Below are positions 5,521 through 61,145 of a DNA stretch of 64,000 bases, one piece after another. Source of the DNA: Escherichia phage phAPEC8; sequence record NC_020079.1; one strand, given 5' to 3'. Within the stretch, counting starts at the first letter, position 1; each line of letters opens with the position of its first letter. The position numbers and the translations under genes are program-made. Under the pieces are notes generated by a model. It had not been told where the DNA came from. It did not search any database and was given only the letters and a program-made list of their open reading frames with translations.

Positions 5521-7020
5521 GCCCGAACAATGTTGATAGCTTTCGCCTATGAAAAACCGACACAGAACAAAATTGAATAAATCGCGGTATCGAGCTAATC
5601 AACCATTAAACGAATAACCATACCTCCCAGGGTAACAGGCTGTTAGAGAGCCATTTAAAGCGGTTAAAATCGATCAACAACCAACAACAAACCATCAAAA
5701 ACACCCTTTTACCTCCTTTCTAGTGCAATGATAACCATTATCATCTATCCATGTTTATCTATGCAATATAAGTGCATAACTATAATGTTGATAATAGTTC
5801 GCAACAACTAACTAACCAACAACCTAAAACAATAAGCAAACTAATCATAATCAAAGGAATAATAGCAAGATGATTGATAACGACAAACAATCAAACCATG
5901 ATGAATACTAAGCAAGATAACGATAACACGACAAAACAACCAACTAACGAACAATAACAAACGAAACCATTAAAATAACAACTATTAGCAAAATAGTGCC
6001 TGAATGAAATCATTACAAAACGAATCATTCACAGGATCATCATTAGCACGCTATGCCGGACACATAGCGAGCTAATAATAAGCCAACTACACCCCAACAA
6101 TCATAACCATCGGTGATGGTTATTTCTTGTTACTGCGTAGCTTGCAATAATTGCAAGCGTAATTACGCTTACACTTATTGCGCTGGCTTATTATTAGCAT
6201 TATATGTAATTACCAAGATCATAACATTAGCGCAATAACAATAATCATTGTGGTAATTACAAGATGAGATCATTAGCAAGATGAATAATTGCACGTAGCA
6301 ACATGAGCGAATAGCGACAGGTTGCATAGTGTGCACATAGTGTATAAACATACAAGAAAATAAAGGCTAATCTTTTGGGGGCGAATACTATCGCGTAGCG
6401 ATATGTTGAGCACCTTCTCTTAAACGTAAATAAAATCAGAATAATCTTGATTTATTTTAGTTTTTATGTTAATAAACGTTTAAATAATAATCATTCTCAT
6501 ATAAATAATAGTCCGTTTGTCATGAGCGGGATTAGTTGACAGTGTTCCGTCATATGATGAAGTTGCCAACCCCTTGATAAATAAGCCTTTGTGTGATTTA
6601 TAATCAAGTGGCCCACCTTGTCGCTACGTTGGCATGAAGCTTGCATAAGTCATTGAATACGAATGATAATTATTCTCATTCGCATGATATTTGGGAATTG
6701 TCGCTGCGTGGACCTGACGGCCCGAAAATTCGCGTTAAGCACTTCTTACGTATACGCCATGATTTTTGCCATATGATATTGATTCTATTAGATATTCTTG
6801 CCATGATTGCCATGAAACAGGGTGTCCCGAAATAATCTCTCCCCGTAGATATTTTGGGTTACTTTTTATACAAGAGTGGGGTGTCAAAAATAATCGGTAT
6901 ATATGGGATAATTGATAGGAATCCCCTATGATAATTCGATTGTAATTCCCTAAGATTGATCGTATGATGTTGGTGATTGATGATTGCCATGAAAGATGGC
7001 TAACGATGAGAGGAGATTAT
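5521..7020. other. ORF-poor, A+C-skewed, palindrome-rich non-coding region
   Basis: no credible ORF; CAACAA-type low complexity; palindromes GCGTAATTACGC, TTGCAATAATTGCAA; repeated CATTAGCA and TTGCCATGA motifs. Confidence 0.6.
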
Positions 7021-39416: not shown

Positions 39417-40409
39417 TTAAATTTTCTCACTCCACCATTGAGGGTTGTTTAAGTACCATTCAATCGTTGAGTAGAGATCTTGTTCAAATGTAGAGTTTGC
39501 ACTCCAGCCCAGTTCAGACTCTATCTTAGAAGGATTGATTTCATAACGCAAGTCATGTCCTTTACGATCTTCAACAAAAGTTATCAAGTTGGAAGAAGGG
39601 TAGGTTACTGCTTCTGGATGTACAGTATCCATATAGTCACAAACCATATAGATGATCTCCATATTGGTTTTGGGATTACGTGTTCCAACATTATACGTTT
39701 GACCTGGTTCTCCACCTGTTGCCACTTGAAGAATAGCTCGCGCATGATCCTCAACAAAAAGCCAGTCTCGCACCTGGTCGCCTTTACCATACACCGGAAT
39801 CTCTTTATTCGTCAAGATACTTGTGATGATTTTTGGGATCAGCTTTTCTGGATGTTGATAAGGCCCAAAGTTATTGGAGCAGTTGGTTATCACAACAGGC
39901 AAATCGTAGGTGCGGTGCCAAGCTTTCACAAGATGGTCAGATGCTGCCTTAGACGCACTGTACGGGCTTGAAGGGGCATAAGCTGTCTCTTCGGTAAAGG
40001 GAACGCCAGAGTCTGCCATATCGCCGTACACTTCGTCTGTGGAGACGTGTACGAACATCTTCAGTTTATTTTTTGGGAGGAGCCTTGCAGCTTCCAATAA
40101 ATTGTATGTACCGATAATATTGGAGTCGATGAAAACTCGTGGATTCTTGATAGAATTATCCACATGACTTTCTGCCGCTAAGTGAATGATGAAGTCAGGA
40201 TTGCACTCTACTACTAAACTTTTGACCTGGGTTTCGTTTGCCAAATCTGTCATGCTTAGTTTAACGTGAGTGATATCGCCTACATTCTCAATATCTGCTG
40301 CATAGCCCATCTTATCAACGACAAAAACTTCGTTATTAGGATCTTGACAAAGAGAGCGCACCACGGCACTCCCAATAAAACCAAGACCACCTGTTACCAG
40401 ATAGCGCAT
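39417..40409 (-). CDS. rmlB: dTDP-glucose 4,6-dehydratase
   Basis: [16 protein letters not shown]; extended SDR fold. Confidence 0.9.
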
Positions 40410-54218: not shown

Positions 54219-54538
54219 TTAAAAACTGAAATTTTCAATCTGTTACACACTTCATCCAAATCTGCGTCGAGTAACGTTGTAGATGTTGCCAACATATAAT
54301 CAATGCTTGTGAAACCTTGCCCTTTGGCATAGTCAAACATATCTTCATACATATCTTCTTCAGTCCCGAAACAGAAGTCACCCAAATGCCACATCTTGAC
54401 ACCTGGACTCGTAGCGCATTTATTCCATGCTTCGATCAGTGCTTCTGTCATGTGGTCCATATCTTCCCACGGTCGATATTCAGGAGCAAACTCTCGTATA
54501 CGTTTGTGCATAAAATGCAAATCACTTGTAATAAACAT
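54206..54538 (-). CDS. hypothetical protein
   Basis: ORF; DLH and GD motifs only. Confidence 0.4.
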   Translation of the reverse strand: MFITSDLHFMHKRIREFAPEYRPWEDMDHMTEALIEAWNKCATSPGVKMWHLGDFCFGTEEDMYEDMFDYAKGQGFTSIDYMLATSTTLLDADLDEVCNRLKISVFKWED

Positions 54539-54894
54539 TAGTATAATCCCTCGCTAAATAGGTCACGATCATGACCATTACGTTCGTAGTCAATCTGGTC
54601 TGCGTGTTTTGCAATAATGTATGCATCTTCACGACTCCACCAATTGTAGTATTGATCAATAAAACCTTGATTGTTTGGAAGACAATGCACTTTATCAAGC
54701 ACACCTGCTTCTTTCAATACATTCAACTGTGTAGATAATACAGGATTTGCATGTCGAACACAAGGAATAATTAACTCTTCACCATTATTCAAAATATACT
54801 TATTCGCAGCACAGACTATAACACGTTGCGCATAATGACCCTCACCAATCCAGGTAAGAGGCTGGTAACAAATGTTGTTTTCAATACCACTCAT
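54538..54894 (-). CDS. hypothetical protein
   Basis: ORF tiling. Confidence 0.45.
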   Translation of the reverse strand: MSGIENNICYQPLTWIGEGHYAQRVIVCAANKYILNNGEELIIPCVRHANPVLSTQLNVLKEAGVLDKVHCLPNNQGFIDQYYNWWSREDAYIIAKHADQIDYERNGHDRDLFSEGLY

Positions 54895-55053: not shown

Positions 55054-55398
55054 TTAATAGTGCACACGAATCATTTTAATACCATAACGCAGCATGGATT
55101 CTTTTGCAAGCATGAATTTATCCCCAGCGGCGGGATTAGAAGTATGCACGAAAATGGTAGGTGAACCAAAGCAAGGTTTACCAAACGCCAGAAGTTCTTC
55201 CAGGTACAGGAAAACATCATACCCATCTTGGTCTGACTCCATACCTAAATCATTGTCAAAAGACCACTCGGTTACTCTTCGATACAGTTTAGCAGGATCA
55301 TTAAGAAAAGCCATAGCTTCTTGTGACGTTTTAAACCAAATTGCATCTTCCTGTCCATAGTCGGCTGGGTTCCGCATATCATCTATCCAAACTTTCAT
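55054..55398 (-). CDS. hypothetical protein
   Basis: ORF tiling. Confidence 0.45.
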   Translation of the reverse strand: MKVWIDDMRNPADYGQEDAIWFKTSQEAMAFLNDPAKLYRRVTEWSFDNDLGMESDQDGYDVFLYLEELLAFGKPCFGSPTIFVHTSNPAAGDKFMLAKESMLRYGIKMIRVHY

Positions 55399-57273: not shown

Positions 57274-57386
57274 TTCTTACCTCCTTTGTTGTCAAAATAG
57301 CTTACCAGAACATCGTGAACCACACAAATGGCAAAAATCAGAACAATTGTTGCCAGGATTGGGTTCTCACTAATTAGTGCTATCAT
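57270..57386 (-). CDS. small membrane peptide (38 aa)
   Basis: internal ATG with SD GGAGG; hydrophobic core. Confidence 0.35.
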   Translation of the reverse strand: MIALISENPILATIVLIFAICVVHDVLVSYFDNKGGKK

Positions 57387-57693
57387 CTTTAACCACCTCC
57401 AATTGCCTTTCGAGTTTGACTCTGTTTGAGAACTGATAATGACACAACTTACATTGCATGTCAACAATCTGATCGTGATTTAACCCTACAATTTTAACTT
57501 CCTTTGCACCATCCCACTCCAAATACTCAAAGCCATCCAAATGATTACTCTTGTCCAACAGGAATGCTATCTGCTGCCATTCAATCTGAATGTCATTTAA
57601 ATGATATGCTGCACAGAAGATATCCTCATAGTAAAAGACGATCATTGTCATTGCTTCGTCCAGCACAACTACTTCTTGTCTTGTAAATCTCAT
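57370..57693 (-). CDS. hypothetical protein
   Basis: first gene of minus block; SD GGAGG. Confidence 0.5.
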   Translation of the reverse strand: MRFTRQEVVVLDEAMTMIVFYYEDIFCAAYHLNDIQIEWQQIAFLLDKSNHLDGFEYLEWDGAKEVKIVGLNHDQIVDMQCKLCHYQFSNRVKLERQLEVVKDDSTN

Positions 57694-57699
57694 TCTAGC

Positions 57700-58164
57700 C
57701 TCCTAAACGCGTCTCTGACGCACTTTTTATATATAAGATGATAAATCACCTTACCTAGTAAGTAAGCTTGCTCTACGAGCCTCTTATGAAGCTTAAGTTA
57801 TACTATTGCTACCTGTTTAAGCAAGGTTTTGCACACAGAAAATAATTTTTAATAAAACTCTTGACTTTTGTGTTCGAAGTATGCTACCCTAGAAATCTAT
57901 TAACGAGCGCAGCGAGTTAAGGTTTTAGGTTGTTGATGTAGTACTCTGTACTAAAGCACTGTACTCCGTACTAGATTAATAATTATTAAATATTAATAAA
58001 TAATTATTAGATCTAACAAACAGGTACAGTGTATCAGAACTGGTACGTACATATCAACTTCTATCAATTAAAAAATAAAATAATAAATTATTATAAATAA
58101 TACTTGATCTATAAATCAGTATGAAGTACAGTACGTAACATCTTAACAAGAATGGAGGTGTGCA
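57700..58164. promoter_or_regulatory. divergent intergenic control region with GTAC-containing repeats and AT-rich palindromes
   Basis: TGTACT/AGTACAG half-sites about 8 times; TAATAATTATTAAATATTAATAAATAATTATTA; minus-strand TTGCTT/TATAAC promoter. Confidence 0.5.
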
Positions 58165-58350
58165 ATGATTAGTGAGAATCCGTGCAAATGGCATCATGTG
58201 CCTATTAAAGATTGTATGTCTTGTAATCCACGTTCTATTTATAACATTGCATCTTATGATGATGACAATGTGTTAGACGATGATGAAGGCTGGGAGGATT
58301 TAGATTGGACTGGTTATGAAACCAAAAAGGATAAAATTATTCCTAGTTGA
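58165..58350 (+). CDS. hypothetical small acidic protein
   Basis: ORF, SD GGAGGTG. Confidence 0.5.
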   Translation: MISENPCKWHHVPIKDCMSCNPRSIYNIASYDDDNVLDDDEGWEDLDWTGYETKKDKIIPS

Positions 58351-58387
58351 CTTAAGATATCCTTCGTGCTAAACTAGAAGTGAGGAG

Positions 58388-58639
58388 ATGCCGATCACTC
58401 CCCATTTGGGGTTCGAAGGATATATGCAAAATAGCTTTTATTTTAGGTGCCGTGCTTGTAATAGGCATTTGACAAACCACTCCAGACGTGATAAAAATGG
58501 AGTCATCAAGGAATCAGACCTCTGTTCTATTTGCACAGGTTTGGCTTTTGATGATAGTCCCGAAAGGGTTTATCAGCATCAATGTATAACAGACGTTCTC
58601 GTGTCAAACTTGGTAGAGGACGAACAACTAACAGATTAG
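58388..58639 (+). CDS. small zinc-finger protein
   Basis: CRACN ... CSICTG pairs; SD GAGGAGA. Confidence 0.5.
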   Translation: MPITPHLGFEGYMQNSFYFRCRACNRHLTNHSRRDKNGVIKESDLCSICTGLAFDDSPERVYQHQCITDVLVSNLVEDEQLTD

Positions 58640-58647
58640 GAGGAACA

Positions 58648-58896
58648 ATGTCTCTATTAGAAAAACACGTGTTTGAAGATGGTAACGGCAATGCAGTTTT
58701 TCTTTTCCATCCAGAAAAATACACATCTGAAAACAATGGTACAACTTCTATTGTAATCACTAAAGATGTTAAAGTTATTGATTTCTTGGCTCTGATGCGA
58801 GAGATGGATCTTGAAATTAATACTTTTAACGCAGAAGCTTTGGTTGTTGCTCTTCTGGAAAAGAAAGATAGTGAAGAAGTAGCAGAATATGCTTAA
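58648..58896 (+). CDS. hypothetical protein
   Basis: internal ATG with SD TAGGAGGAA. Confidence 0.5.
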   Translation: MSLLEKHVFEDGNGNAVFLFHPEKYTSENNGTTSIVITKDVKVIDFLALMREMDLEINTFNAEALVVALLEKKDSEEVAEYA

Positions 58897-58903
58897 ATAA
58901 CTA

Positions 58904-58938
58904 TTGACAAACGTATCCTTCATATGTTAGGATACGTT
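58904..58938 (+). promoter_or_regulatory. promoter (TTGACA) overlapped by 9-bp inverted repeat AACGTATCC..GGATACGTT
   Basis: hexamer and palindrome read directly. Confidence 0.5.
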
Positions 58939-59142
58939 CATCAAGTGTGGTAACAGGGTCGTTGACTTTTGTTAAGAGGGGCTTGCACTGCGGTAGTGTT
59001 AGAGACTACTTCTTCAGAGGTTAGCTACCAAAGAGGAAAAGGAATAGTCTCGGCTCAAGAACTTTTACGCTGAAAGTTGGGCTTGGTCTTAGAGAATGTA
59101 GCGGTTCTCTACAATCGTCAGCGTCTCTGTTACCACATTTAT

Positions 59143-59214
59143 GGCCCTGTAGCTCAATGGGAGAGCTGTCGGCTCATAACCGATAGGTAGCTGGATCGAA
59201 ACCAGCCAGGGCCA
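59143..59214 (+). tRNA. tRNA-Met (anticodon CAT)
   Basis: manual cloverleaf: acceptor GGCCCTG/CAGGGCC, loop CTCATAA, T-loop GATCGAA, CCA encoded. Confidence 0.75.
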
Positions 59215-59219
59215 CCAAC

Positions 59220-59291
59220 GTCTTTATGGTGTAATGGATAGCACAGGAGTCTTCTAAACTCTTAGTCAAGGTTCGATTCCTTGTAAAGACA
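59220..59291 (+). tRNA. tRNA-Arg (anticodon TCT)
   Basis: acceptor GTCTTTA/TAAAGAC, loop CTTCTAA, T-loop TTCGATT. Confidence 0.7.
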
Positions 59292-59528
59292 CCAGAACAT
59301 TTTAACATGAATTAGCTCAAGTGATTTGAACCCACTACTGATCATGGTGGCAGAGAATGAGGCAAGTATGTCAGACATTATAAACAAAGGCCACGGTTAC
59401 ATTAGAAGACATAAATGCTCGAAGAGCACCGTTCGTGGAGAACGGGGGTTGGTGGAGTCACCATTCATGGTAAAATGTTTTAAAAAACTATTGACAACTA
59501 ACATTATTTTATGTTAGATTATAAGTAT

Positions 59529-59616
59529 GGAAGGGCAAATCGACGTGGCGACGAAAACGGTCTTGAAAACCGCCGAGCTTGAAAGAGCCTTGGGAGTTCG
59601 ACTCTCCCTCCTTCCG
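59529..59616 (+). tRNA. tRNA-Ser (anticodon TGA), type II
   Basis: long variable arm; loop CTTGAAA; T arm GGGAG-TTCGACT-CTCCC. Confidence 0.7.
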
Positions 59617-59623
59617 CCAGATT

Positions 59624-59706
59624 GGTAGATTGGTGAAATGGTAGCCACGACAGTTTGCTAAACTGTAGTCGGAAACGGCGTGTAGGTTCGAGTCCTACAT
59701 CTACCG
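59624..59706 (+). tRNA. tRNA-Ser (anticodon GCT), type II
   Basis: acceptor GGTAGAT/ATCTACC; stem ACAGT/ACTGT loop TTGCTAA; long variable arm. Confidence 0.7.
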
Positions 59707-59836
59707 CCAAGTTGTTTTTAATGTAGCGTTGCGGCTACTTACTTTAGCAGAGTAAATCTTCGGCAAGTGGCGGTAACCACTTTACCGATACCGCATAGTC
59801 AGTAAGGCGAATACTGGCTACTTTAAAAACAATTTT

Positions 59837-59917
59837 GTGAGATTGGCAGAGTGGTCGATTGCGGGGGACTGTAAATCCCTTCTGAAAGGCGCGGTGGTTC
59901 GAATCCATCATCTCACA
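59837..59917 (+). tRNA. tRNA-Tyr (anticodon GTA), type II
   Basis: acceptor GTGAGAT/ATCTCAC; loop CTGTAAA; long variable arm. Confidence 0.7.
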
Positions 59918-59926
59918 CCAAATTAA

Positions 59927-60009
59927 GATGAGTTGGCTGAATGGTTTAAGCGGCGGACTGTTAATCCGTGTTCGAAAGAACGATATAGGTTCAAATCCTA
60001 TACTCATCG
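59927..60009 (+). tRNA. tRNA-Asn-like (anticodon GTT) with 15-nt variable arm
   Basis: anticodon arm GCGGA-CTGTTAA-TCCGT matches E. coli tRNA-Asn; extra GTTC-GAAA-GAAC hairpin in variable region. Confidence 0.55.
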
Positions 60010-60019
60010 CCAGAATTAT

Positions 60020-60096
60020 GGACTTGTAGAGTTAAGGTAAACCCCCAGTCGCCAAGAGGCTTCTGGAATTGCAGGTATCGAATCCTGCCGAGTCCC
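60020..60096 (+). tRNA. tRNA-like element, non-canonical, anticodon unresolved
   Basis: 7-bp acceptor GGACTTG/CGAGTCC and T-arm-like GCAGG..CCTGC, but no canonical anticodon arm and 8-nt T-loop. Confidence 0.3.
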
Positions 60097-60102
60097 AGCT
60101 TT

Positions 60103-60174
60103 GCTCCTATAGTATAATGGCTATTACAACGGTTTTGTAATCCGTGGATCTCTGTTCGATTCAGAGTGGGAGCA
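60103..60174 (+). tRNA. tRNA-Thr (anticodon TGT)
   Basis: acceptor GCTCCTA/TGGGAGC; loop TTTGTAA; T arm CTCTG-TTCGATT-CAGAG. Confidence 0.65.
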
Positions 60175-60452
60175 CCAACACAACATTAAGGGCACTGTGA
60201 TTGATCGTCGTATCCTGTGCACAAGGTCTGTTCGAAAGACAGTGTTCTTAGTATTGTGTTGATCACACAAAAAGAGTTACCTGAAACTTGACCGGAGTAG
60301 GGTTGGATGGGGCAAAAGAAGAAGCGGCTCTCCCATCGACAGCAACGAAGAATAATATTTGACTTTGGTTTTGTATTATTTTAAGTTAGCTTACCGAACG
60401 TAGGGCTAGTCACCCAACGGGATACTCGTCACTGTCCCACTCAATAAAACTA

Positions 60453-60483
60453 TTGACAACCAATAGTAAAATGTAGTATAGTA
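60453..60483 (+). promoter_or_regulatory. promoter (AACTATTGACAA ... TAGTAT) upstream of tRNA-Gly
   Basis: -35 TTGACA, 16 bp spacer, -10-like hexamer. Confidence 0.5.
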
Positions 60484-60493
60484 AAGATGTAGG

Positions 60494-60564
60494 GCGTTCT
60501 TGGTGTAGCGGTAGCATTCCGTCCTTCCAAGTCGGCGGCACGAGTTCGATCCTCGTAGAACGCT
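60494..60564 (+). tRNA. tRNA-Gly (anticodon TCC)
   Basis: acceptor GCGTTCT/AGAACGC; D-loop AGCGGTAG; loop CTTCCAA; T arm ACGAG-TTCGATC-CTCGT. Confidence 0.7.
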
Positions 60565-60666
60565 CCAAATTATTTAATAAAGGGTTGCCAGAAAACTTTC
60601 TCTTTTACTCATGGTTTTCTCCTTCTCTCACACCTCTTCTGGTTGCCCTTCATTAAATGATTTATT

Positions 60667-60739
60667 GGTTTGTAGTGTAGTCCGGTAGCACACGACACTT
60701 TGACTGTCGTAGGTTTGGTTCAAATCCAGACAGACCAGC
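60667..60739 (+). tRNA. tRNA-Gln (anticodon TTG)
   Basis: acceptor TGGTTTG/CAGACCA; stem CGACA/TGTCG loop CTTTGAC. Confidence 0.7.
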
Positions 60740-60834
60740 CATATAACAAAGGTGAGTCACTACCTCAAGTGTGAAGTTAAAAACGAGGAGCCGCCGAACA
60801 CTTTCTTTTGCGGCGTACCTTTAGAATGTTATGA

Positions 60835-60908
60835 CGGAATTTAGCTCAGTTTGGTAGAGTGTACGCTTTGGGAGCGTATTGTCGCAGGTTCGAATCCTGC
60901 AATTCCGA
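60835..60908 (+). tRNA. tRNA-Pro (anticodon TGG)
   Basis: acceptor CGGAATT/AATTCCG; D arm TAGCTCAGTTTGGTAGAG; loop TTTGGGA; T arm GCAGG-TTCGAAT-CCTGC. Confidence 0.8.
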
Positions 60909-60917
60909 CCAATTAAA

Positions 60918-60988
60918 TGTTTCGTAGTTCAATGGTAGAACCCACGACTGATAATCGTGAGATACAAGTTCGATTCTTGTCGAAACAA
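60918..60988 (+). tRNA. tRNA-Ile (anticodon GAT)
   Basis: acceptor TGTTTCG/CGAAACA; stem CACGA/TCGTG loop CTGATAA. Confidence 0.75.
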
Positions 60989-60993
60989 CCAGT

Positions 60994-61062
60994 TTCCCGT
61001 TAGACTTACAGGATAAGAGTTCCACAATTTATTGTGACGCTGGTTCGAATCCAGCACGGGAT
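60994..61062 (+). tRNA. degenerate tRNA-like element (possible tRNA pseudogene)
   Basis: 6-bp acceptor TCCCGT/ACGGGA and canonical T arm GCTGG-TTCGAAT-CCAGC, but anticodon region is a palindrome with no 7-nt loop. Confidence 0.3.
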
Positions 61063-61069
61063 ACATAAT

Positions 61070-61145
61070 AGCGGGATAGAGGAGTCTGGTCGTCCTCGCC
61101 AGTTTCATATGCTGGAGATCATTGGTTCAAATCCAATTCCCGCCT
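61070..61145 (+). tRNA. tRNA with CAT anticodon (Met, initiator or Ile-lysidine)
   Basis: D arm GAGG..CCTC; stem CCAGT/GCTGG loop TTCATAT; A1-C72 mismatch. Confidence 0.6.

Follow-up and report, generated by a model that had tools for sequence, protein, structure and literature searches.

The tetranucleotide that Escherichia phage phAPEC8 (sequence record NC_020079.1) and its close relatives avoid most, GTAC, is piled up at a single intergenic locus, around the longest A/T-only tracts and over a set of nested, predicted sigma70-type promoters. We analyzed 64,000 nucleotides of this record, here called the window, and the locus is the 471-bp gap at 57694–58164 between an open reading frame (ORF) of 107 aa on the minus strand and one of 61 aa on the plus strand. 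The general kind of element is familiar, namely a promoter or origin region with repeats and A/T tracts, and what is new is the combination, in which the genome-unique cluster consists of a motif that is apparently methylated. We tentatively favor the reading that the locus is an early control hub that doubles as a transcription-activated origin of replication, with the GTACs as clade-specific recognition or timing sites, and we hold this reading with limited confidence.

The window belongs to the phAPEC8-like myoviruses (genus Phapecoctavirus, subfamily Stephanstirmvirinae), and the 2 kb around the locus are 97–98.7% identical to those of about 60 Phapecoctavirus genomes, the closest being ESCO25; identity to ESCO25 and ESCO13 is 97–99%. 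An earlier reading made from the letters of the window (the sequence-only reading) had recognized the gap between divergent genes; this stands, but the length that it gave, 465 bp, is corrected to 471 bp by the ORF list. Our searches of PMC and bioRxiv turned up no account of the locus, nor any report for Phapecoctavirus of an origin or of GTAC being avoided or modified. Three GenBank records label parts of the locus as 'repeat_region' and give them no name.

A cluster of an avoided tetranucleotide

The GTACs of the gap are found at 57941, 57948, 57961, 57968, 58024, 58043, 58047, 58126 and 58131, so that 194 bp (57941–58134) hold nine of the 65 sites of the window. The window as a whole is poor in GTAC, with 65 observed as compared with 158 +/- 13 in shuffles, and at the background rate 0.17 sites would be expected per 194 bp (Poisson P(>=9) = 3e-13, or about 2e-8 after multiplication by all window positions). 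Dinucleotide-preserving shuffles of the gap (n=5000) contained 2.4 GTACs on average and at most 8, never reaching nine, and shuffles of the 211-bp core contained 1.5 on average and at most 6. When the tetramers of the gap are ranked against the rest of the window, GTAC is the most enriched (P = 7.5e-10). The clustering is real and far above chance. Motif enrichment was the check that the sequence-only reading had proposed, and shuffles, Poisson estimate and tetramer ranking all place GTAC far beyond the expectation from local composition. Because GTAC is the most enriched tetramer of the gap and lies above all shuffles, the objection foreseen there, a motif frequency not exceeding that expectation, falls away.

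About eight half-sites in both orientations had been described earlier, and our count of nine GTACs, with CTGTAC/ACTGTAC cores on both strands, bears this out. These extended cores lie on the plus strand at the left, and on the minus strand at the right and at 58126–58134. The left array consists of two 13-mers, GTACTC[TC]GTACTA, spaced 20 bp apart; the right array is inverted relative to it, and a third group, GTACAGTAC, occupies 58126–58134 (Table 1). The spacing between the cores, which are 4–5 bp long, is irregular (0, 1, 3 or 7–8 bp). Tandem GTACT-N0-3-GTACT is found nowhere else in the 150-kb genome of the relative ESCO13. Most relatives have five GTACTs in the left array as compared with four in the window, which lacks one GTAC of its relatives (CTAAAGCACTG as compared with the consensus CTCAAGTACTG) and also carries a private 7-bp deletion at about 57796. 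GATC occurs twice at the locus in the window sequence and three to four times in relatives.

The avoidance of GTAC extends over the whole genome. ESCO13 (149.8 kb) contains 145 GTACs as compared with 443 (Markov) to 531 (composition) expected, which makes GTAC its most depleted 4-bp palindrome, and GATC is not depleted. Ten GTACs fall within 200 bp at the locus in ESCO13; the next-best 200 bp, inside an rml gene, hold 6, and all others hold at most 3. As ESCO13 keeps all nine of the array GTACs and has lost 13 of 51 elsewhere (38/51 kept), the array persists against a strong genome-wide depletion. The second-densest cluster, at 39960–40108 (about 35825 in ESCO13), lies in the gene for dTDP-glucose 4,6-dehydratase, the rml gene just mentioned, with 4 GTACs per 150 bp in the window and 6 per 200 bp in ESCO13; it may be a sign that the rml genes were recently acquired. 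Four glycosyltransferases are also carried, beside the primase-helicase.

A/T tracts, predicted promoters and their conservation

The long AT-only palindrome noticed in the sequence-only reading is a 35-nt run, imperfect as a palindrome (16-nt arms, 88% complementary), which AGATCT/GATC adjoins at 58009–58014. A second tract of 37 nt, separated from it by 56 bp, could be a shared UP element, a spacer or a second unwinding element; in the record of phage nepoznato it carries one of the unnamed 'repeat_region' tags. In ESCO13 the two runs of the locus (38 and 36 nt) are the longest A/T-only runs in the genome, the equivalent of the 35-nt run ranking first and that of the 37-nt run second, and about 0.002 runs of at least 35 nt would be expected per ESCO13 genome.

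The GTAC blocks and the 35-nt run together form a 117-bp imperfect inverted repeat, with outer arms ATGTAGTAC / GTACGTACAT, middle arms GCACTGTAC / GTACAGTGT and inner arms TAGAT-TAATAATTATT / AATAATTATTAGATCTA. Folded as DNA it reaches -17.1 kcal/mol as compared with -7.9 +/- 2.0 for shuffled sequences (z = -4.7), and none of 200 shuffles was as stable. The RNA fold of the leader behind P1, one of the promoters described below, also beats its shuffles (z = -3.3). A search of Rfam returned tRNAs and nothing else, both at E <= 1 over 57300–59300 and at gathering thresholds over the whole window, and this absence of a match at the locus rules out a known structured RNA family.

Three interleaved sigma70-like promoters are predicted from the sequence, two rightward (P1 and P2) and one leftward (P3). 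As P3 lies to the right of P1, these two face each other across the palindrome, and the 37-nt tract separates P3 from P2, the two being back to back. The predicted start of P1 is 78 nt upstream of the 35-nt run, and its leader would carry the four to five GTACTs of the left array at +45 to +75. The -10 of P2 is overlapped by GTACAGTAC with its two GTACs, and P3 has GTACGTAC in its spacer and a GTAC at its predicted start. A scan for the sigma70 consensus gave 10 sites as compared with 5.9 +/- 2.6 in shuffles, and single hits are therefore weak evidence. What we find in addition is that hexamers with spacers of 17–18 nt are conserved in relatives while their surroundings diverge: P1 is invariant in 11 aligned phapecoctaviruses and is also kept in the phiWec lineage and in phi92, which is of a different genus; the position of P2 reads TTGACT-N17-TAGAGT in phi92 and the phiWec lineage; and the elements of P3 can be read in phiWec188 as TTGATC-N18-TGtTACTAT despite the loss of GTAC there. 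The divergent promoter region proposed in the sequence-only reading is thus supported by sequence and conservation, but its layout is not that of a simple back-to-back pair, since P1 and P3 are face to face and P2 is added proximally. In the literature searched, we found no transcript mapping for Phapecoctavirus.

Behind P1 lies a leader box, CGAGCGCAGCGAG, which is 100% conserved from Phapecoctavirus to phi92, with a flanking stem that in phi92 is CCCC(C)/GGGG. The box with its lineage-different stems hints at a structured leader. P1 is one of a family of three promoter copies in the ESCO13 genome, of the form TTGACT-N17/18-TG[CG]TACCCT, each followed about 13 nt on by a box CGAGCG(C or AT)AGCGAGT, and the other two copies have the box variant CGAGCGATAGCGAG. 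As possible roles of the box we consider a leader element, an operator and a small RNA. One of the copies lies on the minus strand in a 361-bp gap within the plus-strand early block (ESCO13 gp044/gp045) and would fire against that block. A scan of IMG/VR for TACCCT-N8-28-CGAGCGCAGCGAG gave 15 loci, mostly on unrelated high-G+C contigs and near chance by a rough estimate, and was rejected as evidence. The short tandem repeats behind the box vary as well: the copy number of the unit TTAAGGTTT / AAGGTTTT differs among the phages, with 1–3 copies in UP17, Ro121lw and anhysbys, where 1–2 are extra.

Comparison across lineages separates a conserved scaffold from the repeats. P1, the leader box, the A/T tract and P2 are conserved subfamily-wide, and the repeats between them are not. 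In phi92, ATACT stands at the GTACT positions of the window (compare ATACTCTATACT with GTACTCCGTACT), and a 35-nt A/T-only run is found at the same place. In the phiWec lineage, for which a genus of its own was described in 2025 (PMC12695924), the left array is lost and the right array reads GTTAGATAG...GCTCTATAC, with its GTACs gone. The ratio of observed to expected GTACs is 0.27–0.37 in the main Phapecoctavirus clade, 0.6 in phiWec188 and 0.72–0.75 in phi92, so that depletion parallels the presence of the array across lineages. The array is unique in the genome and specific to its clade.

A cluster of GATC/AGATCT in the phiWec lineage was considered as a substitute for the array, but its 5 GATCs per 200 bp are matched at three other places in 50 kb, and it is therefore not significant. 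We also rejected the junctions of rV5 as equivalents, because gene order differs there and the gaps measure 100–185 bp. CTAG is wholly absent from 50 kb of phiWec188 (77–184 expected). The locus also shows deletions. In dw-ec, 14 bp are deleted between GTACT units. The record of phage nieznany (MN850598) begins and ends inside the locus, with ends that overlap by about 330 bp, and one copy is missing 66 bp equivalent to about 58030–58095 of the window, an interval that takes in the right GTAC block, P3 and half the 37-nt tract. The phage stock may have contained a deletion variant, or the palindrome may have been mis-assembled.

In ESCO13 the genome has four transcription blocks with two divergent and two convergent junctions. 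Of the divergent junctions, the one with the locus is longer and more complex, and the other spans 118 bp. The minus-strand block of about 36 kb encodes ligases, exonucleases, an aerobic ribonucleotide reductase, dTDP-sugar genes and two DNA methyltransferases, and the plus-strand block runs from three small ORFs and tRNA genes to the spanin, large terminase, portal, head and tail genes. With eleven tRNA genes directly downstream, P1 and P2 are probably tRNA-gene promoters, and ESCO13 has further sigma70-like promoters with an extended -10 ahead of several tRNA genes (57298, 57885 and 59707). The 107-aa protein that heads the leftward block has a PHROG match and no Pfam match; phi92-like phages have homologues of about 44% identity at the equivalent place. 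As it is 92% identical in phiWec188 and phiWec190, which have no GTAC array, its gene is not a co-varying partner of the array. The small hairpin in the leader of this gene is invariant in 11 phages. In phiWec188, phiWec179, phiWec190 and PsgM04F, a 70-aa minus-strand gene without a family match (1573–1785 of the phiWec stretch) is added between the 107-aa gene and the promoters. Further into the leftward block, a 114-aa protein (55054–55398, minus strand) contains a cREC_REC (cyclic-phosphate-processing receiver) domain (E = 4e-17), and about 2 kb separate its gene from the one syntenic with the RNA ligase gene in nepoznato and ESCO13, a pairing that points to an RNA-repair module.

Table 1. 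Features of the locus and related features, with positions in the window unless another genome is named; promoters are predicted.
Feature	Position	Strand	Remarks
107-aa ORF, head of ~36-kb leftward block	57370-57693	-	PHROG 14390, function unassigned
Small hairpin GCGTC-TCT-GACGC	57709-57721	-	in leader of leftward gene, adjoins ribosome-binding site
19-nt A/T-only tract	57839-57857	.	directly upstream of P1 -35; third-longest A/T run of the window
P1, distal rightward promoter	57861-57890	+	TTGACT (57861-57866), 18-nt spacer, extended -10 TGcTACCCT (57882-57890); predicted start ~57897
P1-type promoter copies	57861-57916 (+); 20467-20410 (-); ESCO13 129854 (-)		family search
Leader box CGAGCGCAGCGAG (57904-57916), closed by stem TTAAC/GTTAA	57900-57920	+	conservation
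Short tandem repeats TTAAGGTTT / AGGTT	57917-57935	+	copy number varies
117-bp imperfect inverted repeat	57936-58052	.	GTAC blocks and A/T core; fold and inverted pairs
Left GTAC array, GTACTCTGTACTA and GTACTCCGTACTA	57941-57973	+	20 bp apart; four GTACT
35-nt A/T-only imperfect palindrome	57975-58009	.	core of the inverted repeat; candidate DNA-unwinding element
Right GTAC array, GGTACAGTG and GGTACGTAC	58024-58050	-	inverted relative to left array
P3, leftward promoter	58028-58057	-	TTGATA (58057-58052), 18-nt spacer, extended -10 TGaTACACT (-10 58033-58028); predicted start 58021; best-scoring minus-strand site
37-nt A/T-only tract	58066-58102	.	between back-to-back P3 and P2; longest A/T run of the window
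P2, proximal rightward promoter	58104-58134	+	TTGATC (58104-58109), 17-nt spacer, TACAGT (58127-58132); predicted start 58139-58141; consensus match
61-aa Cys-rich ORF, first rightward gene	58165-58350	+	PHROG 26411
Eleven tRNA genes	59143-61145	+	after the 61-aa ORF and two small ORFs
C5-cytosine DNA methyltransferase, 227 aa	26117-26800	-	motifs FDGSG, FPPC, ENP; candidate GTAC modifier
Adenine methyltransferase, NPPF type, 169 aa	33211-33720	-	motif

Probable GTAC modification and the phage methyltransferases

The GTAC sites of the window were mapped onto 50 kb each of the genomes of KKP 3954 (OR067838) and BI-EHEC (OL505078). At an overall identity that is still 97%, GTAC is altered at 27 of 48 sites in the former (56%) and at 34 of 50 in the latter (68%), and it is the tetramer with the highest loss in these two genomes, where the mean 4-mer loss is 8–10% and GATC is normal. 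The changes are nearly always to ATAC or GTAT, that is, a C read as T on either strand, with some 2-bp insertions of TA, unlike those in ESCO13, where the lost GTACs are altered heterogeneously. BI-EHEC was sequenced by nanopore only, with Guppy 4.0.11, Flye and Medaka (PMC8686590), and its record has fragmented, overlapping coding-sequence calls. The simplest reading of this pattern is a systematic base-calling error at a modified cytosine, and it is probable that the phage directs modification of the cytosine in GTAC. The array would then probably be a local pile-up of an otherwise avoided, methylated motif. As 56–68% of all GTACs are hit, we regard the apparent mutations as an artefact and do not accept them as proof that the array is dispensable. 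We point out that the public genomes of KKP 3954 and BI-EHEC contain dozens of motif-specific errors and frameshifts.

The candidate for this modification is the C5-cytosine methyltransferase of 227 aa, which is annotated as a DNA methyltransferase in ESCO13 and as a 'Dcm-like C5 cytosine methyltransferase' in the BASEL phages; from its sequence motifs and the base changes above we infer that it makes GTA(m5C), m5C being 5-methylcytosine. Pfam recognizes neither this enzyme nor the adenine methyltransferase of 169 aa. Vequintaviruses encode homologues of both that are about 47% identical, and in a 2025 study of the vequintavirus Bas51 the adenine enzyme was assigned to GATC, and modified bases at GTAC were also quantified (PMC12548924). 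In the 169-aa enzyme, D79 and T83 match the positions at which loss of function was reported for the GATC methyltransferase of Bas51, and the phiWec188 version of this adenine enzyme appears to be frameshifted. Outside the window, the annotation of ESCO13 places a third methyltransferase gene between those for portal and head.

The pairing of enzyme and array across lineages is incomplete. The phage phi92 has neither the array nor the 227-aa enzyme, in whose place by synteny it encodes another, canonical C5 enzyme, but phiWec188 has a C5-methyltransferase that is 93% identical and no GTAC array, so that co-variation of the two fails in the phiWec lineage. The T1-like phage PaulSarasin, which has a 61%-identical methyltransferase, is ambiguous as to specificity, as its ratio of observed to expected GTACs is 0.29 by composition and 0.57 by a Markov model. 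If GTAC is the target, methyltransferase sites are clustered at the locus, at nine in 194 bp.

Origin, switch or structural element

In the reading that we favor, of a hub and origin in one, host RNA polymerase would initiate at the three interleaved promoters. Rightward transcripts from P1 would enter the palindrome, leftward ones from P3 would start beyond it and run toward the early/middle block of 36 kb, and P2 would serve the small ORFs, tRNA genes and late genes on the right. Polymerases moving through and away from the two long A/T-only tracts would open the DNA there, since the 37-nt tract lies between the diverging P3 and P2 and the 35-nt palindrome lies in the path of P1, and a T7-like replisome of a gp4-type primase-helicase and a family-A polymerase would load at the opened tracts. 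The inverted GTAC repeats would be cis-acting recognition sites that give the locus specificity and timing, probably by a reading that depends on cytosine methylation.

Several findings are consistent with an origin. The locus is singular, with its 10 GTACs per 200 bp as compared with 145 in all of ESCO13 and with an array that persists against the depletion; it holds the two longest A/T-only runs of the genome; it is the point at which two of the four transcription blocks diverge; P1, the A/T tract and P2 are kept in the phiWec lineage and phi92 where the intervening sequence has diverged; and a predicted promoter lies directly upstream of an A/T element that should be easily unwound, which is the layout of the T7 origin and of T4 oriF/oriG. 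In the primary origin of T7, a 61-bp A/T-rich region follows the promoters phi1.1A/1.1B, and T4 oriF/oriG consists of a promoter and a downstream unwinding element. As in those origins, a strong promoter would fire into an extreme A/T tract between genes, with no dedicated initiator gene evident, and as in T7 the annotation of ESCO13 includes a gp4-type DNA primase/helicase together with a family-A polymerase (DNA polymerase I). No dedicated initiator was found, and a T7-type origin would fit this. On the other hand, the locus differs from T7 and T4 in having three host sigma70-type promoters, placed face to face and back to back, and a palindromic A/T core with inverted GTAC repeats that has no counterpart there, and origin activity at the phage locus is a prediction. 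An A/T core set between inverted repeats in a palindrome is origin-like by analogy with other viruses: HSV-1 (herpes simplex virus 1) oriS/oriL and the SV40 (simian virus 40) core origin with its GAGGC pentamers are palindromic origins between divergent promoters. They share with the locus an A/T-rich center, inverted short motifs and a larger imperfect palindrome between divergent genes, but those viruses infect eukaryotes and have known helicases that bind the origin (UL9, T antigen), no such protein was found for the phage locus, and the likeness is one of architecture only.

A number of observations weigh against the reading as hub and origin. Two of the three A/T tracts lie where UP elements would explain them, and P1 and P3 converge on the 35-nt palindrome, so that their joint firing would favor positive rather than negative supercoiling there. 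The GTACs are missing or mutated in the phiWec lineage and replaced by ATACT in phi92, and because these sister lineages keep the scaffold without them, GTAC itself is not essential to the role of the conserved scaffold; the excess conservation of array GTACs over others in ESCO13 is likewise not significant when taken alone (Fisher P = 0.18). A DnaA-dependent origin is rejected, as boxes of the form TTWTNCACA are at chance level, with one in the gap (57827) and 10 in the window as compared with 10.5 expected. Repeats beside an A/T-rich tract are also found in the iteron origins (lambda ori, SPP1 oriL/oriR, and the iterons of plasmids and of phage P1 oriR), which the two 13-bp units 20 bp apart resemble. 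A classical iteron origin is nevertheless ruled out, since these two units are the only such repeats, the rest being 4–5-bp cores at 0–8 bp that are partly inverted; there are no three or more phased iterons of 17–22 bp, and the neighboring ORFs searched yielded no adjacent or enclosing initiator gene. Finally, the locus is a local minimum of cumulative GC skew, but the global minimum lies at the other divergent junction, at about 131.5 kb in ESCO13. As the skew flips at each change of transcription direction, GC and AT skew are uninformative as a test for an origin, and the authors of the rV5 study also saw transcription-linked skew changes alone (PMC3606486).

A pure transcriptional switch is a serious alternative and, in our judgment, nearly as likely. 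The GTACs would then be operators for a phage or host protein, or methylation-sensitive promoter elements, without a role of the locus in replication, the pair P1/P3 together with P2 would be controlled so as to time the leftward early genes against the rightward tRNA and late genes, and the A/T tracts would be UP elements or bending sites. The positions of the sites agree with this, as GTACAGTAC covers the -10 of P2, GTACGTAC falls in the spacer of P3 with a GTAC at its predicted start, and the four to five GTACTs fall in the leader of P1; so do the 19-nt tract just upstream of P1, the 37-nt tract between P3 and P2, the hexamers of P3 kept in the phiWec lineage, and the probable modification of GTAC. 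Such arrangements have precedents. Face-to-face promoter switches are known in phages 186 and P2, and methylation sites lie in the promoter cores of IS10 pIN, Mu mom and pap. The likeness to the pR/pL pair of 186 and P2 is that two predicted promoters face each other across about 125 bp at a gene-block boundary, but the phage here is strictly lytic, with no repressor or Apl/Cox-type gene at the locus. A partner is also hard to name: searches of 15 flanking ORFs against Pfam and PHROGs gave no usable initiator or DNA-binding protein, with a sub-threshold match to HTH_51 (E = 0.086) in a 118-aa ORF at 54538–54894. No match to the Fur consensus within 3 mismatches was found in the window, look-alikes being seen in other non-coding regions of ESCO13, and resemblances to LexA, IHF, SlmA and FadR sites, checked by eye, did not hold. 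Furthermore, GTAC marks no other promoter in the genome, the core spacing is unsuited to the operator of a dimeric helix-turn-helix protein, and phiWec188 and phiWec190 keep the promoters, the neighboring genes and the methyltransferase, yet have no array. The sequence-only reading had offered iterated operators for a phage regulator, or an origin; these correspond to our readings as switch and as origin, which are not mutually exclusive.

We think it quite unlikely that structure is all that matters. The palindrome would in that case be a cruciform or hairpin acting as an insulator, a pause site or an attenuator between P1 and P3, or as a recombination hotspot, and no protein would read GTAC; slippage of GTACT would have made the repeats, which would be mere G+C clamps of the stem. 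The significant stability of the palindrome and of the P1 leader RNA speaks for this, as do the variable copy number of the neighboring repeats, the deletions in dw-ec and in one end copy of nieznany, and the ATACTs at homologous positions in phi92. But a clamp does not need nine to ten copies of the most avoided tetranucleotide of the genome, the GTAC pair at the -10 of P2 lies outside the palindrome, neither arm is followed by a terminator-like U/T tract, and no Rfam family was matched.

A packaging signal or terminus, highly improbable by now, would consist of a cleavage region flanked by methylatable repeats, four to five at one end and three at the opposite end. The pac site of phage P1 has 4 + 3 TGATCA/G hexamers, and the 5 + 3 short methylatable palindromes around a center of about 50 bp resemble it; terL lies about 4.5 kb downstream of the locus in ESCO13, and the record of nieznany starts and stops here. 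However, the overlapping ends of that record, which differ by a deletion, mark an assembly break rather than a terminus. Genomes of the Stephanstirmvirinae are reported in a 2025 paper to end in direct terminal repeats (PMC12695924); that of phi92, annotated with 343 bp, lies upstream of gp001, about 47 kb from the equivalent junction, and that found by PhageTerm in the phi92-like phage BME3 maps to the same non-coding region, homologous to about 5556–7020 of the window. As the direct terminal repeats of phi92 and BME3 map elsewhere, the reading as a packaging signal is close to refuted. The region at about 5556–7020, which equals 1–1465 of ESCO13 and is a large non-coding region with palindromes (6144–6181, 6062–6207), is probably the site of the physical genome ends, because the homologous region of BME3 carries the repeat of 342/343 bp. 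What probability remains after the four readings named so far, hub with origin, switch, structure and packaging, we leave to something not considered.

A more specific idea, in our view unlikely, is that the array is a phage-autonomous epigenetic timer, in which the phage's own C5-methyltransferase would progressively methylate the 9–10 clustered GTACs on P2, on P3 and around the A/T core. The sites would be unmethylated on entry, hemimethylated after replication and fully methylated later, and would gate the firing of an origin, the change from leftward early to rightward tRNA and late transcription, or both; the depletion of GTAC would confine the signal to one locus, or would reflect deamination of m5C wherever the motif is not under selection. 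Clusters of methylation sites are known from GATC in E. coli oriC, where SeqA acts, and in phage P1 oriR, from phage P1 pac and from the Mu mom promoter. The locus is like these in that short palindromic methyltransferase targets are piled up at an origin- or promoter-type place and in that the methyltransferases are phage-encoded. It differs in that the motif is GTAC and not GATC, with a modification that would be on cytosine, and in that GTAC is depleted here, whereas GATC is depleted neither in E. coli nor in the phage. We know of no SeqA-like reader for GTAC. If the idea is true, the array would be an m5C/GTAC analogue of Dam/SeqA at oriC, of phage P1 pac and of Mu mom.

Phapecoctaviruses, together with their phi92-like and rV5-like relatives, count among the broad-host-range coliphages that are isolated most often, and therapy cocktails make use of them; the locus described here is the best single candidate for the origin of replication and for early regulation in these phages. 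A GTAC that is both avoided and apparently modified, and that corrupts nanopore-only assemblies, matters for the quality control of their genomes, for interactions with restriction and type IV systems, and for phage engineering. If the array is read in a methylation-dependent manner, it would represent a rare case of a lytic phage that uses its own cytosine methyltransferase for regulation and not only for protection.

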